NCBI GenBank assembly: GCA_965219685.1
Contig: CBDCOH010000002.1
Location: forward strand, 96,001 to 160,000
DNA length: 64,000 nucleotides
Direction of reading: 5' to 3'
Origin: Candidatus Spongiisociaceae bacterium
Lineage (GTDB): Bacteria; Actinomycetota; Acidimicrobiia; Spongiisociales; Spongiisociaceae
Below are positions 5,281 through 37,806 of this stretch, in pieces. The notes under the pieces were generated by a model. The model was not told the DNA's origin and did not search any database. It was given only the letters and a program-made list of their open reading frames with translations. A program made the translations under genes and the position numbers. Position 1 is the first letter of the stretch. Each line of letters begins with the position of its first letter.

Positions 5281-5408
5281 GAGGGCTCCTCGGTCCGGGG
5301 CGGGTCTGACTCTTCTCGTAACTGGCCTCTGTGCCTTTGTCATGATCTGTCCACCACTTCCCCGGTCCGGGAGTTCCCGGATCGGGGAAGTGGTGGACCC
5401 CCATTAGG
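5281..5408 (-). mobile_element. orphan IS110-type left-end remnant with long hairpin
   Basis: 5387-5408 reverse complement = cctaatgggggtccaccacttc, identical to 34166-34187 at the left junction of the intact IS110; hairpin ~5350-5397. Confidence 0.6.
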
Positions 5409-7744
5409 AGCGTCACCTCGAGGACCACGATCAGTTCCAAGCCGGCCTTACTCGGCGGTTTGCTCGGCGCCTCGTCCAGGATGCCAGGGTGATGTCGATT
5501 CGGGCGGCGTCCCGCCATCACGGGGTGGGATGGCATCGGATCATGCGCCTGGTGAGCGCCCACTCAGAGCAAGTGGCGAAGCGTCGCCGGGCCCGGCCCG
5601 TGCGGGTGTTGTTGGTGGACGAAACGTCGATCCGGCGCCGGCATCGTTATGTGACCGTGGTTGCTTGTGGCGACTCGGGCAAGGTCCTAGCCATGAGCGA
5701 GGATCGCACGAAAGGGTCTTTGAGCAGGTTCTTCCGTGATCAGGGACCGGGCTGGTGCCGGCAGGTGGAGATAGTCGTTTCTGACGGGTCCCGCTTATAT
5801 CAGGCGGCCATCGCCCAGTACTTGCCCGACGCCCGCCACGTCTTGGACGTTTTCATGTTGCGCGGGTGCGCCATGAGGCGCTTTGTTCACGAGTGAGGGT
5901 GCGAGACCCTTGCCGTGGGCTGTCACAGCAGTCCGCTGAAGCTGGGAGCAGTCCAGGTCTTGGGGGTGCAGGACCTTGGGCGGTAAGCAGCTCGGAGGAC
6001 GCCGGGACGGGTCGGCACCGTCAGACGGTCCGGGTCCGGCAAGCAAGACGAGAAGGTGTAACAACAGTAGTGAACCAGTGTCAGAACCTCCTTAAGCGTG
6101 GAACCGGCTCGAATCTGGCGGATGTGGGCCGGGCAGCAGTGCACGTCGTCTACTACTGGCGTGGACGGCGACTCCGTAACCGGCTGCGTGCGCCGGTGGG
6201 GAGGCTTTCCGGGAAGGTCTGTGGCGTACCGGAGAGCGAGGCTGCAGGAGAAAAGCTGGGCGTCTCCCTTGTCGAGCGGAACAAAGTGAACATGGGAACC
6301 GACCCGGGGTTGTCCCTCCCGCTGCGCTGCCAGTGCGGCGGAGGGCAGGTCCACCGCCGACCGATGGCGTCGGGTCGGGACGGAGCCTCCGTAGTAGGTG
6401 CGAGGTCGGGAAAGCCGGCCACACGGGGGAAGGGAGGCAGCGGGTCAGCAGCGGCGGGATTGGAATGCCAGGAGGCCGCCGGTGAATACCGGCGTTCTGT
6501 GGCCGACGTCTGAGGAGGCGTCGGTGCGGGTACTGGAGATCCAAACTAAGCTGCATCGTTGGGCATCTGACGATCCGGGTCGCCGTTTCGGTGATCTTTA
6601 CAACCTGGTGCACGATCCGGCCACTGTCGGGGTGGCGTGGGATCGTGTCCGCAGGAACCGAGGTGCCCGCACCGGTGGAGTGGACGGCCAGACCGCCCGC
6701 TCCATCGAGGCACGACACACCGTGACGGGCTTTTTGGAACAGCTTCGAGCCGATCTCAAGGCCCGAACGTTTCAACCGTTGCCCGTGCGGGAGCGGACCA
6801 TCCCGAAACGGAGCGGCAAGCTACGCCGCCTGGGGATACCGACCGTTCGGGACCGTGTCGTGCAAGCGGCAATGAAGGTGGTGTCAGAACCCTGTCTTTG
6901 GGGCGGACTTCCAGCCGTGTTCGTATGGGTTCCGACCCAACCGCCGGGCACAGGACGCCATCGCCGACATTTCACCACCACTGGTGCACCAGCTCTTATG
7001 AGTGGGTGCTGGAAGCGGACATCAAGGCATGTTCCCGACCAGACGGCGACCACACCGCTCTCATAGAGCGGATTCGGGGTCGGGTCTCGGACAAGAAGGT
7101 CTTGAGCCTGGTTAAGACGTTCCTCAAAGCCGGTATCCTCGGAGAGGACGGCGTTGATCGGGACACCTGGGCGGGAACCACTCAAGGCGGGATACTCTCA
7201 CCGCTGCTCGCCAACATCGCCCTCTCCGTCCTCGATGATCATTTCATCGACGTGTGGGCTGGGTTTGGTAAGAACGCCCAGGCTCGAAGCTATCGACGGT
7301 CCAAGGGTTTCGCCACCTACCGGCTGGTCCGCTACGCGGACCACTTCGTCGTGTTGGTGCTCGGCACCCGTGACGACGCCGAAGAGCGACGGGCGGAGGT
7401 CGCAGCGGTGTTGTCGGAGATCGGGCTGCGTCTGAACGACGACAAGACGAGAGTCGTTCACATCGACGACGGTTTCGACTTCCTTGGGTTCCGTATCAAA
7501 CGGGACCACAAACGAGGAAGCGGGAAGGCCTATATCTATACCTACCCCTCCAAGGAGTCGGTCGCCTCGATCAACAGGAGAAGAAAAGGCCATCGGTCGC
7601 CAGACCACCAGCCAAAGCCCCAAGACACCTACTACGGCAACTCAACCCGGTACTGAGTAGAGGCTGGACCAGCTACTTCCGGCACGGGGTGTCCCCAGAC
7701 CACCCTGCGGATACCTCCGTCACTACACATGGCGGAGAGTCATC

Positions 7745-32851: not shown

Positions 32852-33433
32852 CTAGAATAGGTCGGGGTTTCTCTCGTTGACACAGTGGGCAAGCCGGTCG
32901 AAGAAGGCCGCCATGTCGGGCTCGTCCACGATGCGTGGCCCGTTTGCAAAGTCGACTTCCACGACCGCGGACGCCTCCATCATCCCTGCTGCCCACGCAG
33001 GGGCGTCGCGGCCCGAAAGCCGCTCGACCGCAGCCCGGAAGAAGTCCACCCACGACGTTCCATCGCTGCGCATAGTGTCGCCGTTGTTGAACAGCATGAG
33101 GTAGCCGGTCACGATCTCCGGCGATTGAAGCTGAACGTTGGCCATCTCGCCCGTCAGGTCGTCTAGGCGGTTTGGAACCGTCCCTGCAATGTTCTTCAGT
33201 ATTGACTTCAGGCTGATCACCAACCTGATCTTCCCTTCGGCGGGCCACACCACATCCCATTTCTTGGAACGTCCTATACCTGGGACAGAAAGCTCCTTGG
33301 TGGCGCCGTTGATGCCGCGCCGGTCGAGTTGCTCGATGCACATGTCGGCCAGCACCTGCAGCCGCCTCGTCGATGTGGGCGTCTCCCTGGCGATCTCGTA
33401 CAGGCTGGTGACGGCGTCCTAGAGCGAGATCAT
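32852..33433 (-). pseudogene. type II restriction endonuclease (PaeR7I/XhoI-like) with TAG at codon 5
   Basis: atg atc tcg ctc TAG gac...; KKWDVV...ISLKS...NRLDD; directly downstream of the methylase. Confidence 0.7.
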
Positions 33434-34174
33434 GACGACCGGTGAAGGAGCCCCACCGCTTACAGTTCCATGCCGGGATCGACGTTGCGGATGACGGTGG
33501 CAGGGTGGTCGGGCGTGGCTACCTTCAGCCGGTCTTCGGCGAGGTCGAGGTAGGCGGGTTCGATGTCGTACACGACCGAGTCGCGGCCTGCCAGAGCCGC
33601 GGCGACACAAGTGGTGCCTGACCCGCCGAAGGGATCCAGCACCGTGTCGGCCACGAACGAGAACATTCGGACCAGACGGTTTGCTAGCTCGACAGGAAAG
33701 GGGGCCGGGCGGTCCGGTGACGATGTACCCCCGATGTCCGTCCAGAACGCCCGGTACCACGCGTGATAGTCGTCCTTGGGGATGCGGGACAGCCAGCGCT
33801 GCTCCTCGGTGGGCTTGCGGTAGCCGCCGGGCTTCCGTAGGAGAAGGATGTACTCGATCTCGCTCTTGATGATCCCATTCGGTTCGTACGGCTTGCCCAG
33901 GAAGTAGGTAGGGCCCGCCACCTCGGTCGTCATGTTCGTGCGCTTCCACCAGAAGATGGGGGTCAGGACATCGAAACCGGCCTGGCGGGCTTGGGAGAGG
34001 ATGTCAGCGTGCAGGGGTATAACCCGGTGGCGTCCGTGCTTACGGCGGGACAGGGTGACATCACCGACATTGATACACAGCCAGCCTCCAGGGAGAAGCA
34101 CCCGGTAGCACTCGTCCCACACTCGGGTAAGTTCCTTCTGGAACAGCTCGTAGTCATAGAGGTCACCTAATGGG

Positions 34175-34375
34175 GGTCCACCACTTCTGCCGGTGTTTCT
34201 GGGAGGGTGTGGTGGTTGAGCTGGCTGGCCGGTGAGTACTGATGGCACCCGGAACGTTGATTCCTAGAGCTAGAGCGTACCCCGGCCGGTTCGCGAGGGT
34301 GCTTGTAGCGCTCATGGGGTGTCGTGCCGTAGAGCACTGATCCATTAGGTCGCCGCCGGGTGTCCCTCGAAGCTC
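34175..34375 (+). ncRNA. predicted IS110 bridge RNA
   Basis: 5' hairpin; target guides gatggcacc (34241-34249) and agctag (34268-34273); donor guides tggggtgtc (34315-34323) and ccattag (34342-34348); ends approximate. Confidence 0.8.
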
Positions 34376-34415
34376 TCTGACAATGTTTTGGGACTGTTTC
34401 TGAAGGAGGCAGCAG

Positions 34416-35636
34416 ATGATCTTTGTGGGAGATGACTGGGCTGAGGCGCATCACGATGTGTGTCTGATGGACGAGGCGGGAACTCGGTTGGCTGGACGGC
34501 GGCTGCCGGAGGGCCTGGCGGGGGTGGCCCAGTTGCATGAGATGATCGCCGAGCACACATCGGATCCGGCCGAGGTGGTGTTAGGCATCGAGACCGATCG
34601 GGGCCTCTGGGTCGGTGCTCTGGTCGCAGCGGGCTATCAGGTATATGCGATCAACCCCAAGGCGGTGTCCCGTTACCGGGATCGGCACAGCATGGGCGGA
34701 GCGAAATCAGACCGTGGCGATGCCAAGGTGTTAGCCGATCTGGTACGAACCGACCGTCACAACCATCGTCCCGTGGCCGGGGACAGCCCAGAAGCGGACG
34801 GGATCAAGATCATGGCCAGAGCGCATCAGAACCTGAAATGGGCCCGGGTGCGTCACACCAACCAGATGCGCAACGCCCTCCGCGAATACTATCCCGCAGC
34901 GTTGGAAACGTTCGATGACCTGGCCCATCGCGACGCCCTTGCCGTCCTGGGCAAAGCACCCACCCCCACCCTGGGCACCCGCCTGACACTGCCCCAGATC
35001 AGAGCAGCCCTCCAGAAAGCCGGGAGGCGACGCAACCTCGACAAGGTTGCCCGCCGCATCCAGAAAGGCCTCAGAGGTGCCCACCTCACCGCACCGGAGC
35101 CGGTTGAGAACGCACTCGGGACAACAGTTGCATCACTGGTCAACATCATTGTGGAAACCAACCACCAGATCGAACAGCTCGAGCAAACCCTCGAGACCCG
35201 TTTTAGAGAACACCCGGACGCCGTCATCTACCACTCCCAGCCAGGACTCGGTACCGTGCTCGGCGCCCGGGCGCTCGGTGAGTTCGGGGACGACCCCCAA
35301 CGCTACACCAGCGCCAAGTCTCGCAGGAACTACGCCGGCACGTCGCCCATCACCATCGCATCAGGCCGCAAACACGCCGTCACGGCCCGCCACGTCCGCA
35401 ACCGGAGACTCTACGACGCCCTCGACCAATGGGCATTCTGCACCCTAACCCGAAGCCCAGGCGCCCGAGCCTTCTACGACCAACGACGAGCAGCCGACGA
35501 CGAACACCACCAAGCCCTCCGAGCCCTCGCCAACCGACTCGTAGGCATCCTCCACGGCTGCCTCAAACACCGAACCCCCTACAACGAACACACCGCCTGG
35601 GCCCACCGAACCGCCCTCGACCGAGCCGCAGCTTGA
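34416..35636 (+). CDS. IS110 DEDD recombinase, intact 406 aa
   Basis: FVGDDWAEAHHD, GIET, KSDRGDA, YAGTSPITIASG; RBS aaggagg. Confidence 0.95.
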   Translation: MIFVGDDWAEAHHDVCLMDEAGTRLAGRRLPEGLAGVAQLHEMIAEHTSDPAEVVLGIETDRGLWVGALVAAGYQVYAINPKAVSRYRDRHSMGGAKSDRGDAKVLADLVRTDRHNHRPVAGDSPEADGIKIMARAHQNLKWARVRHTNQMRNALREYYPAALETFDDLAHRDALAVLGKAPTPTLGTRLTLPQIRAALQKAGRRRNLDKVARRIQKGLRGAHLTAPEPVENALGTTVASLVNIIVETNHQIEQLEQTLETRFREHPDAVIYHSQPGLGTVLGARALGEFGDDPQRYTSAKSRRNYAGTSPITIASGRKHAVTARHVRNRRLYDALDQWAFCTLTRSPGARAFYDQRRAADDEHHQALRALANRLVGILHGCLKHRTPYNEHTAWAHRTALDRAAA

Positions 35637-36099
35637 CATTTACGCTCCTGGGGTGTCTAGCTGAGCCGGATTGTCCGGGTACTTCTTGAGTGTCCAGTAC
35701 GGCGGTGAAGTGACTACGAGGGCAGATGATTCATCATCGACGTCCAGCATCCGCCGGGCATCGCTGTGGATCAGCCGGTGATGAGTGGGGGAAAGCCCGT
35801 GCCGTTCGCAGCCAGCTGCAGGTTTTCCATTGTCCGCTCCTCAGTTACACGCTTGTAATCTTAGTAAAGCTCGGTCGGGCCCTGCCGGTCGGAACAGGTT
35901 TGCGGACCTGTCTCAGGTCGGGTTACCCACCGCGCACTACGGTGCTTAAAGGTACCGGAGGCATGTGACACACCTTTGAGGCGTCCAAGCTCATCGGCGG
36001 CAAGTGGTAGCTTTCGCTCTGGTCATTACGCAGGCTGGAGGGCGGGCTCATGCCTGACGTAGTCGTGGTTGGTGGTGAAGCAACTAGCCAGGGTGTCCC

Positions 36100-37806
36100 T
36101 CATCCGCGGAGGGTCGCCGTTCTTGCAGTGTCCACGATGAAGGTGGCCGGGTCGACTGACACGCCGTAGTCCTGCTCGGCTGCCTCGACGGATACGAAGC
36201 CGTTGCGGACATCCTTCGCCACCTTTGCGGGATCGCGCTCGAACGGGTTGCCCCAGCCGCCGCCTCCTCCGGTGTTGTTGGCGAGAACCTGTCCGGCTTC
36301 GAGGAAGTTGTAGCTGCTTCCCTTCCGCTCCTCGTTCTCGGTCCCCGGGTCGATCACGATGTGGTTGGGATCGGCTTCCTTGCCGCCGTTGATGCCCCAT
36401 GGAGGGCTCAAGGTCTTGTAGACGATCGAGATGGCCGTGCTGGGGGCGAGGAACCGGTAGACCCTGCTGATGCCCACCCCGCCGCGGTGCTTGCCGGGGC
36501 CTCCGGTGTCGGGTCGGTAGCCGTACTGGTCGATCATTAGGGGACCCTTGATCTCCAGCACCTCCACGGGATTGTTGCGGCAGCCCGGCTCGGACAGATG
36601 CATGATGCCGTCCTCCCCGTCTCCGCCGGCGTGGGCGCCGAACCCGACCGCGTCGTTCATGCCTTCCAGCCACGGACCTCCGGTCCGCGGGTCGACTCCG
36701 AGAGCCATGACGGAGCACACGTCACCTCCCGAACAGGCGGGCACGCGGTCGGGCATCCCCTGTGACAGGGCCTTCAGCATCACCTCGCCGCCCAGCAACC
36801 CGGTCCACAGCGTGAAGGTGGGCATGGGCGGAACGGCGTGCATCACCGATCCTTCCTTGGTGATCACCCGCAACGGGCGGAAGTTGCCGGCCGTCACCGG
36901 CCATTCGGGAGTGGTGAGGCCCTTGAAGATCAGGCAGTTGAACGCCTCGGTCATGCCCCGCGGTAGGTTGATCGGACCGCGAACCCCTTCGTCGCTCCCG
37001 GTCCAGTCGACGATCATCTCGTCGTCGGTGATGGTGATGGTCACGGCCATCTTGATGGGTCTGTCCAGGTCCACCCCGTCGTGGTCCATGTAGTCCTCGG
37101 CGCTCCACGTGCCTTTGGGCATGCGCCGCAGGGCTGCCAGCGCCAGGCGCTCGCCGTGGACGTTGATGGCGTCCATGGCGGCGGTGAGGGTTTCGACCCC
37201 GAACTTCTCGGCGATTTCACGGGTTCGCCTGACCCCGGTCACGACGGCCGACACCTGGGCCTGCAAGTCCCCGATCGTGTGGCTGGGCAGCCGGCTGTTG
37301 AAACGCACGATGTTGAAAATGTCCTCGTTGATCTCCCCTTCCCGGTACAGCTTGACGACGGGGAAGAAGATCCCTTCCTGGTACATGTCGGTGGAGTCGA
37401 GTACGTATCCCGGGTCCTTCTGTTTGAGGTCGAGCACGTGGCACCGGCAGGAAGCAAAGCCGACCAGGCGCCCGTCTATGTGGATAGGGGCGAACACGAG
37501 CGTGTCGAGCGTGTGGGCGGACGACCAGTACGGGTAGTTGTTGATGAACACGTCCCCGGGCTTCATCGCGTCTGTTCCCAGGAACTCGATCGACCGCTTG
37601 ATGCCGTAGTCGTTGCCGCGGGTGAAAACGGCGATGCCCGGAGCGTCGGCGGCGATGTCTCCGTTCACGTCGTGCAGTCCCACCCCGTAGTCGTGGGTTT
37701 CGTAGACGACCGTGTTGTAGGACGTCCGGCAGAGGTTGCGGGCCATCTCCTCGCAGGCCGAGAGGAGCCCGTGACGGATGATCTCGGTGGTGATGGCGTC
37801 AATCAT
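36100..37806 (-). CDS. hydantoinase B/oxoprolinase family protein
   Basis: NYPYWSSAHTLD, HVLD, EGIFFP, NNPVEVLE, GGPGKHRGG, TGGGGGWGNP. Confidence 0.92.
   Translation of the reverse strand: MIDAITTEIIRHGLLSACEEMARNLCRTSYNTVVYETHDYGVGLHDVNGDIAADAPGIAVFTRGNDYGIKRSIEFLGTDAMKPGDVFINNYPYWSSAHTLDTLVFAPIHIDGRLVGFASCRCHVLDLKQKDPGYVLDSTDMYQEGIFFPVVKLYREGEINEDIFNIVRFNSRLPSHTIGDLQAQVSAVVTGVRRTREIAEKFGVETLTAAMDAINVHGERLALAALRRMPKGTWSAEDYMDHDGVDLDRPIKMAVTITITDDEMIVDWTGSDEGVRGPINLPRGMTEAFNCLIFKGLTTPEWPVTAGNFRPLRVITKEGSVMHAVPPMPTFTLWTGLLGGEVMLKALSQGMPDRVPACSGGDVCSVMALGVDPRTGGPWLEGMNDAVGFGAHAGGDGEDGIMHLSEPGCRNNPVEVLEIKGPLMIDQYGYRPDTGGPGKHRGGVGISRVYRFLAPSTAISIVYKTLSPPWGINGGKEADPNHIVIDPGTENEERKGSSYNFLEAGQVLANNTGGGGGWGNPFERDPAKVAKDVRNGFVSVEAAEQDYGVSVDPATFIVDTARTATLRG

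Follow-up and report, generated by a model that had tools for sequence, protein, structure and literature searches.

What is the element that interrupts a DNA methyltransferase gene in the genome of a Candidatus Spongiisociaceae bacterium (Actinomycetota), and can the choice of its insertion site be read from its own letters? The locus lies in a stretch of 64,000 nucleotides, positions 96,001 to 160,000 of the forward strand of contig CBDCOH010000002.1 (assembly GCA_965219685.1), which is called the window here and supplies all coordinates given without another prefix. An original prediction had proposed an IS110 element with readable bridge-RNA guides, a reconstructed target and donor, and a promoter that arises when the ends are joined. 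Very probably, 34169-35658 is an intact insertion sequence of the IS110 group of the bridge-recombinase type. The architecture of bridge recombination claimed for it is supported on every feature that sequence can test: the domains of the recombinase, the layout of the ends, a covarying RNA, the covariation of guides with targets and of the handshake bases, and conserved -35 and -10 motifs of a putative junction promoter. The element belongs to a kind already known since 2024, of which it is a well-formed and well-preserved example.

The limits of the element follow from an identical second copy and from a site without the insertion. A 2,093-nt contig of run X7, a marine metagenome from a different study, runs directly from 34166 to 35657 and omits 1,490 nt, with three ambiguous bases that fit either side; therefore the sequence GAGGTCAC-CTA-GCTG exists uninterrupted, as had been reconstructed, and the insertion measures 1,490 bp. 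The left target half GAGGTCAC with the left copy of a CT core (34167-34168) occupies 34159-34168 and is joined in the X7 contig to the sequence from 35659 onward. The element follows at 34169-35658, its 1,490 bp counted with the right CT copy (35657-35658), and the right target half AGCTG stands at 35659-35663; these features, like those of the element below, are on the plus strand. The empty site has a single CT, and CT stands at both junctions in all five full copies of the element's own genome and in relatives.

The core had been given as CTA, which is one base too long. The identity of the two identical copies begins at cac-CTA and stops at CTA-gct. Related loci conserve the right end as far as GTCT and then have any of the four bases, and their left end always starts with AATGG after CT; for these reasons the shared core is CT, and the A is merely common to the target here and to the first base of the element. 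The top strand of IS621, the Escherichia coli element, is reported to be cut after CT (PMC11208158), and the numbering 34169-35658 follows this convention. The ends AATGGG... and ...GTCT are kept in relatives, and direct reading of AATGGGGG... against ...GGGGTGTCT finds no terminal inverted repeats. The noncoding left end is long, with 247 nt (34169-34415), and the right end comprises 22 nt past the stop codon (35637-35658).

The recombinase gene (34416-35636, 406 aa) has a Shine-Dalgarno-like AGGAGG (34404-34409) 6 nt 5' of its ATG, and its reading frame is unbroken, with the catalytic residues in place, in agreement with the earlier description of it as intact. Both expected Pfam domains are found, PF01548 (RuvC-like DEDD domain; 9.9e-37, residues 4-160) and PF02371 (Tnp domain; 6.5e-10, residues 274-354), and with 187.2 bits the protein exceeds the cut-off of 140 set for the NCBIfam model NF033542 ('IS110 family RNA-guided transposase'), by which it would already be named an RNA-guided IS110 transposase. 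Among proteins of solved structure, sequence comparison finds a single relative, the IS621 transposase (8wt6; phmmer E 1.7e-5). With the roles of the residues taken from IS621 (PMC11208158), D7, D99, D102 and S316-G317 align to catalytic residues, and E59, within a GIETD motif, lies two columns from the IS621 glutamate in a part of the alignment that has low confidence. The nearest cultured relatives of the protein, at ∼68-72% identity, belong to Mycobacterium, Mycolicibacterium and Rhodococcus. A separate observation concerns the Rfam family RF02464 (Ms_AS-4, an actinobacterial sRNA), which matches 35237-35318 on the minus strand with 79.8 bits; because the match falls antisense inside the recombinase gene, this family seems to be an antisense stretch of the transposase gene of the same insertion sequence family.

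The long left end carries the predicted bridge RNA. Related loci were fetched by protein: 594 stretches matched, 140 were confirmed and the best 80 kept. None of the conclusions depends on the unpublished genome G039. A recognisable AATGG left end within range was lacking in 12 of 85 loci, which were excluded, and after merging of identical sequences the alignment (A1) holds 63 distinct left ends. From these, RNAalifold derives two stem-loops, both of them opened by a large internal loop and capped by a small inner hairpin; an evident 5' stem was added to this consensus before the pairs were tested. Over 43 pairs and 63 relatives, 96.5% of 2,665 cells are standard pairs, a share that falls to 29-47% if the 3' sides are displaced by 1-3 columns; compensatory change on both sides occurs in 22 of the 43 pairs, and none of 500 shuffles attains any of five structure measures. 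Covariance in the left end, the first check named for the original prediction, is thus present, and the window copy itself forms 40 of the 43 consensus pairs.

The predicted RNA has three parts. The 5' stem-loop (34179-34214; CACCAC/GTGGTG) contains helix 1 (A1 columns 14-20 with 60-66), 95.6% paired and with change on both sides in four of seven pairs. The target-binding stem-loop (34215-34294) leads from an outer stem through an internal loop to an inner hairpin, GGAA-CGTTGA-TTCC, at 34251-34264; its helices 2-4 are 88-99% paired, and 13 pairs change on both sides. The donor-binding stem-loop (34295-34367) repeats this plan with an invariant inner hairpin, GTGC-CGTAGA-GCAC, at 34324-34337, and its helix 5 is 93.8% paired, five of eight pairs changing on both sides. 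RNAalifold also proposed that the two donor guides pair with each other (GGAT/ATCC); as this would shut the donor loop, it was excluded from the tested structure. A scan with Rfam 15 at E up to 10 returned three matches in 33500-36500, none of them in the left end 34169-34415.

Two pairs of guides flank the inner hairpins, and every motif that the original prediction had pointed out is found in its place. The left target guide GATGGCAC-CC (34241-34250; A1 columns 93-105) has the sense of the target top strand and runs from the left of the core into it; at 34241-34249 it reads gatggcacc, a 7/9 match to the target left gaggtcacc. The right target guide GAGCT-AG (34267-34273; A1 columns 133-139) is complementary to CT-AGCTC and includes agctag (34268-34273), the reverse complement of ctagct. 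On the donor side, the left guide TGGGGTGTC (34315-34323; tggggtgtc) agrees with the right end of the element at 9/9, and the right guide CCATTAG (34342-34348) is the reverse complement of the left-end CT-AATGG (7/7), nearly invariant in the 63 relatives. Six of the eight non-core positions of the left arm are matched in the window copy (mismatches at positions 4 and 2) and four of the five in the right arm, where the guide predicts AGCTC and the target has AGCTG. To gauge chance, the left end was shuffled 20,000 times with its dinucleotides preserved. A target-type pair (7/9 or better, with an exact 6-mer 8-40 nt downstream) arose in 68 of them, so that the target pair on its own is only suggestive; a donor-type pair (9/9 with an exact 7-mer) arose in none.

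The weight of the argument is carried by the family. The same alignment columns were read in each relative and compared with its own flanks, in 57 distinct insertion events from 73 rows (16 rows with truncated flanks or a duplicate event were dropped). The left arm matches at 4.96 of 7 non-core positions and the right arm at 4.12 of 5, compared with 2.27 and 2.06, respectively, for guides paired with the flanks of other elements. In total there are 518 guide-flank matches, against a maximum of 312 in 10,000 permutations: insertion sites follow the guides, as had been expected. On the left, agreement drops from 55 of 57 events beside the core to 30 of 57 at -9; on the right, successive positions after the core agree in 56, 53, 52, 42 and 32 of 57, with background beyond. 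From this decay the clade would appear to read roughly the core plus five bases on the right and the core plus about seven on the left, with decaying stringency.

A further signal comes from the dinucleotides 3' of the two right guides, at the same positions as the handshake bases reported for IS621 (PMC11208158, PMC13626964). The target-loop dinucleotide AG (34274-34275; A1 column 140), with an invariant A, takes its putative role from IS621 (PMC11208158), and this A (34274) faces donor position 7, which is T in 59 of 61 elements. The donor-loop dinucleotide GT (34349-34350; A1 column 225) is complementary to target positions 7 and 6 (C, A), and these two bases pair with C7 and A6 in both targets occupied by the window guide type. 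Across the family the base at 34349 and target position 7 form a Watson-Crick pair in 61 of 62 events, with three types of pair (G:C 45, C:G 13, T:A 3), a level attained in none of 10,000 permutations.

The element's own genome (4.42 Mb, two contigs) holds nine matches to it: one identical copy, three full-length copies at 82-83% (L003, L004 and L005), and fragments. The five full copies represent three guide types, and all five sit at C-CT-A. The identical copy, L002 (G000:C2:2495985-2497483), agrees with the window copy at 100% over 1,499 nt and lies at an unrelated site, which by sequence identity shows recent movement; together with the empty site in a related population, it supports the earlier wording that the element is 'probably active'. 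The L002 site is ACCACAC-CT-AGCTA, matched at 4/8 in the left arm and 4/5 in the right. A tolerance of two mismatches, as originally put forward, thus holds for the left arm of the window copy, but the identical L002 tolerates more. L002 lies inside a repeat family of at least 15 copies, and in no fewer than two of them the identical site is free. The repeat around it (G000:C2:2495838-2497629) is ∼150 bp long and has about 15 paralogous sites, for example C2:886684-886839, 3613420-3613574 and 1842071-1842226; variable tandem heptamers stand on both sides of a conserved core ...GTGAACGGCTACCACAC-CT-AGCTAGCTCATCGTGGTCGG...

Natural variation among the copies supports the suggestion that the system is reprogrammable. 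Between the window copy and L003, 8 of 17 columns of the target guides are identical, compared with 22 of 23 in the donor guides and 141 of 159 in the rest of the RNA, and the L003 guides fit their own target at 10/11 and 7/9; one sibling copy with different guides matches its own target perfectly. Three further, unoccupied instances of the L003 15-mer target lie within a repeat in the genome. On the opposite strand this target reads like a ribosome-binding site beside a start codon, the kind of position that IS900 of Mycobacterium prefers.

L004 (G000:C2:3088160-3089652) and L005 (G000:C2:3082041-3083514) are identical over 1,477 nt, inverted with respect to each other and 4,646 bp apart, and each has one flank that fits its guide and one that does not. 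A single element in another genome, L085, has flanks homologous to the left flank of L005 and the right flank of L004; for this reason L004 and L005 are taken to have exchanged flanks, most simply by inversion between two copies. The orthologous insertion L085 displays the original target of this lineage. Another exchange of flanks between copies is seen in L103 (genome G001), whose left flank is a target of the L003 type and whose right flank is one of the L004 type. The right end of L005 further contains a tandem duplication of 26 nt, by which the -35 and stop-codon region is repeated. In L004, L005 and L085 the right donor guide (A1 columns 218-224) is CTGCTAG, all other relatives having CCATTAG; since their left end is still AATGGGGG, the match to their own donor is just 4/7.

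At three places, L009, C2:638887 and window 5340-5410, a short scar contains the initial 18-20 nt of the left end (AATGGGGGTCCACCACTT, then CT), and all three scars break at left-end nt 18-20. L009 (G000:C2:3481221-3481245) is a clean 20-bp insertion by comparison with identical unoccupied copies of the same repeat. The scar in the window (minus strand, L008) is continued by a hairpin that forms a perfect palindrome, and the left flank of the scar agrees with an L003-type guide at 8/11. The scar at C2:638887 was considered as a clean 20-bp insertion and rejected, as a same-genus orthologue holds a different stretch of equal length.

The right end (35633-35658) consists of TTGACA (35633-35638, overlapping the TGA stop codon), a 17-nt spacer and TCT, and represents part of a predicted promoter. 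Joined to the AAT at 34169-34171, it gives a -35 TTGACA, 17 nt and a -10 TCTAAT, just as the original prediction had read across the joined ends. Among 71 relatives in which both ends were found, 52 have TTGACA and 15 have TTGACG as the -35, 69 have TCTAAT as the -10, and the spacer measures 17 nt (25 relatives) or 18 nt (45 relatives). A rule-based scan found no promoter-like site in the integrated locus. From IS621, whose joined ends are reported to drive a 177-nt RNA (PMC11208160), we infer that the joined ends would function as a promoter here.

The proposed cycle, drawn by analogy with IS621, runs as follows. The element would leave as a circle or a copied-out circle; the joining of right to left end would place TTGACA 17 nt upstream of TCTAAT and lead to transcription of both the bridge RNA and the recombinase gene. 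The ∼190-nt bridge RNA would be held by a tetramer of the recombinase; its donor loop would pair with the circle junction TGGGGTGT-CT-AATGG and its target loop would pair with a chromosomal site of the form GATGGCAC-CT-AGCTC. Ser316 would cut strands after the CT core, and the exchanged strands would be stabilised by the handshake bases (A 34274; GU 34349-34350). In the present case the element landed in the methyltransferase gene at GAGGTCAC-CT-AGCTG, with two mismatches in the left arm and one distal mismatch in the right. In this lineage most of the specificity seems to reside in the right arm, in the core and in the three left bases nearest to it.

Several observations weigh against this account. 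(i) The fold of the single sequence 34170-34415 is no stabler than that of shuffles (z -0.67); it is uninformative, which is why comparative folding was used. (ii) The final base of the left target guide is C and that of the left donor guide is G, both facing a core T, and IS621 is reported to prefer pairing of both core bases (PMC11208160); in the family, the left target guide fails to match the second base of the core in 16 of 57 events, and the last base of the left donor guide is G in all relatives. (iii) The left guide fits its two own targets poorly (6/8 in the window copy, 4/8 in L002). A search of the genome for the ideal 15-mer target gave no site within one mismatch and ten within two, and these ten exclude both sites that this guide type occupies; base pairing alone therefore fails to explain the choice of site. 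(iv) Position 2 of the -10 is C in TCTAAT but A in nearly all sigma-70-type promoters; the core and the donor sequence would also compel the conservation of TCTAAT, and part of that of TTGACA could be coding, since it overlaps the stop codon. The joint of right end to left end was not seen in the contigs of runs X1, X5, X6 and X7, which speaks neither for nor against the account, since contigs cannot show its absence. Four loose-end sequences of run X1, not found in the assembled genome, were taken to come from other strains or organisms in the sample.

Of the alternatives, the following is the most probable. The system would be the same, but both own insertions of this guide type would be off-target 'half-match' events through the right arm and the core, the left guide being inherited from an ancestor that targeted (GGCACCT)n-like repeats. 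We regard this as a tentative possibility, to be taken seriously. L002 looks like the half-match insertions that a preprint reports for IS621 (bioRxiv 10.64898/2026.08.31.748434), and the genome offers no site within one mismatch of the ideal target. A comparison within the genus, with 19 left ends parsed from 30 loci, points the same way: a relative with the same left guide and the right guide AGCAC sits at ctgaCAC-CT-AGCAC, a site of a near-identical left guide is ctgGCAC-CT-GGCAC, and two sisters with the left guide GGTGGCAC, L123 and L114, sit in GGCACCT-type repeats. The right arm is matched at 5/5 in all three same-genus relatives and at 4/5 in both own copies, against 5-6/8 in the left arm of the former and 4-6/8 overall, with position 4 mismatched in four of the five copies. 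This evidence amounts to five events, however; the same preprint, as far as its account of IS621 goes, could not separate events by the right arm only; and distal left-arm mismatches are frequent in natural relatives and may be normal tolerance.

A wider reading, which we consider rather doubtful, is that the genome may keep a natural record of side reactions of a bridge recombinase, in which half-match targeting, scars at an internal CT and a dispensable right-donor pairing are combined. Insertion of this guide type would then depend on the right arm, together with the core and the nearest three bases of the left arm; the scars L009, C2:638887 and window 5340-5410 would stem from a second cut or exchange by the recombinase at an internal CT; and the lineage of L004/L005 and L085, which persists at a donor match of 4/7, would mean that right-donor pairing is dispensable in nature.

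It is improbable that the locus is a genuine IS110 element that has become an immobile fossil, with guide matches that record a past insertion. Decayed relatives do exist (L006 and L007, in the genome region 3.08-3.15 Mb), and the contigs of the four runs contain no circle joint, an absence that contigs cannot establish; yet two copies are fully identical over 1,499 nt at unrelated sites, the open reading frame is intact with all catalytic residues, 40 of 43 RNA pairs are retained, and a related population is without the insertion. Least of all do we credit that the protein or a short fixed motif (C-CT-A) mainly chooses the site and that the guides are chance or hitch-hiking similarity: the shared C-CT-A of the five own copies, the 4/8 left arm of L002 and the 68 of 20,000 shuffles with a target-type pair would fit it, but the base after the core varies in relatives, the handshake base covaries with target position 7 in three types of pair, and none of 10,000 permutations reaches the guide-flank total over 57 varied events.

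The host gene encodes a beta-class N6/N4 DNA methyltransferase on the minus strand and is split by the element (33460-35801). The C-terminal part (33460-34166) matches PF01555 over 33460-34161 (N6_N4_Mtase; 3e-30, profile positions 24-220 of 221), and the N-terminal part (35661-35801) contains the SPPY motif and is intact in the X7 contig; in translation, both parts share a frame once the element is removed. Directly downstream of the methyltransferase, an open reading frame of 167 aa (32852-33355, minus strand) has no match in Pfam or NCBIfam. It could encode a partner restriction enzyme, in which case loss of the methylase would require explanation.

Among known systems, the closest comparison is with the bridge recombinase and bridge RNA of IS621 (Durrant et al. 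2024, PMC11208160; Hiraizumi et al. 2024, PMC11208158; PDB 8wt6). Both have a RuvC-like DEDD domain and a Tnp domain with the catalytic Ser-Gly, a CT core, and an RNA from a long left end that forms a 5' stem-loop and two stem-loops with internal loops. In both, the left guide reads like the top strand, to which the right guide is complementary, the handshake bases lie 3' of the right guides, and the -35, in the window element a predicted one, is in the right end with the -10 across the junction. In contrast, the proteins are distantly related and differ in length (406 aa against 326 aa), the right target guide of the window element covers the core plus 5 nt where a 4-base right guide is reported for IS621, and the left target and left donor guides here miss the second core base. 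The hosts of the window clade are Actinomycetota, and the orthologue is known here from its sequence.

Membership of the IS1111 group was considered and rejected. That group (seekRNA or bridge RNA in the right end) shares the DEDD/Ser recombinase and RNA-guided choice of site, but has its guide RNA in a long right end and long sub-terminal inverted repeats, whereas the window element has a right end of 22 nt and its structured RNA in a 247-nt left end. A long left end carrying the RNA is the layout by which PMC11208160 defines the IS110 group.

Elements of the IS900 type (Mycobacterium) resemble the window element in family, similar size and actinobacterial hosts, a likeness of description and not of sequence; IS900 is described as 1,451 bp long, with no terminal inverted repeats and no target duplication (PMC8141618). 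No paper joining 'bridge RNA' with 'IS900' was found in the collection of papers searched, and the actinobacterial clade of the window element may lack specific earlier treatment. CazIS110-1 (Caloranaerobacter azorensis) and ISPpu10 (Pseudomonas putida) are likewise IS110 elements guided by bridge RNAs (bioRxiv 10.1101/2025.10.25.684509 and 10.64898/2026.03.19.712850); copy-out models would fit the retained identical copies here. The two elements belong to other phyla and are again likened by description, not by sequence.

The window element leaves the known mechanism unchanged. To a family now used for programmable DNA insertion it adds a fully readable orthologue from Actinomycetota, in which the core, all four guides, the two handshake dinucleotides and the putative promoter motifs of the junction have base-exact positions. 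The 57 independent insertions, together with siblings in the same genome that have different guides, form a data set for the targeting rules of the clade, which so far comprise a 7-nt right guide, a left arm of decaying stringency and, on the left guides, an unpaired second core base.

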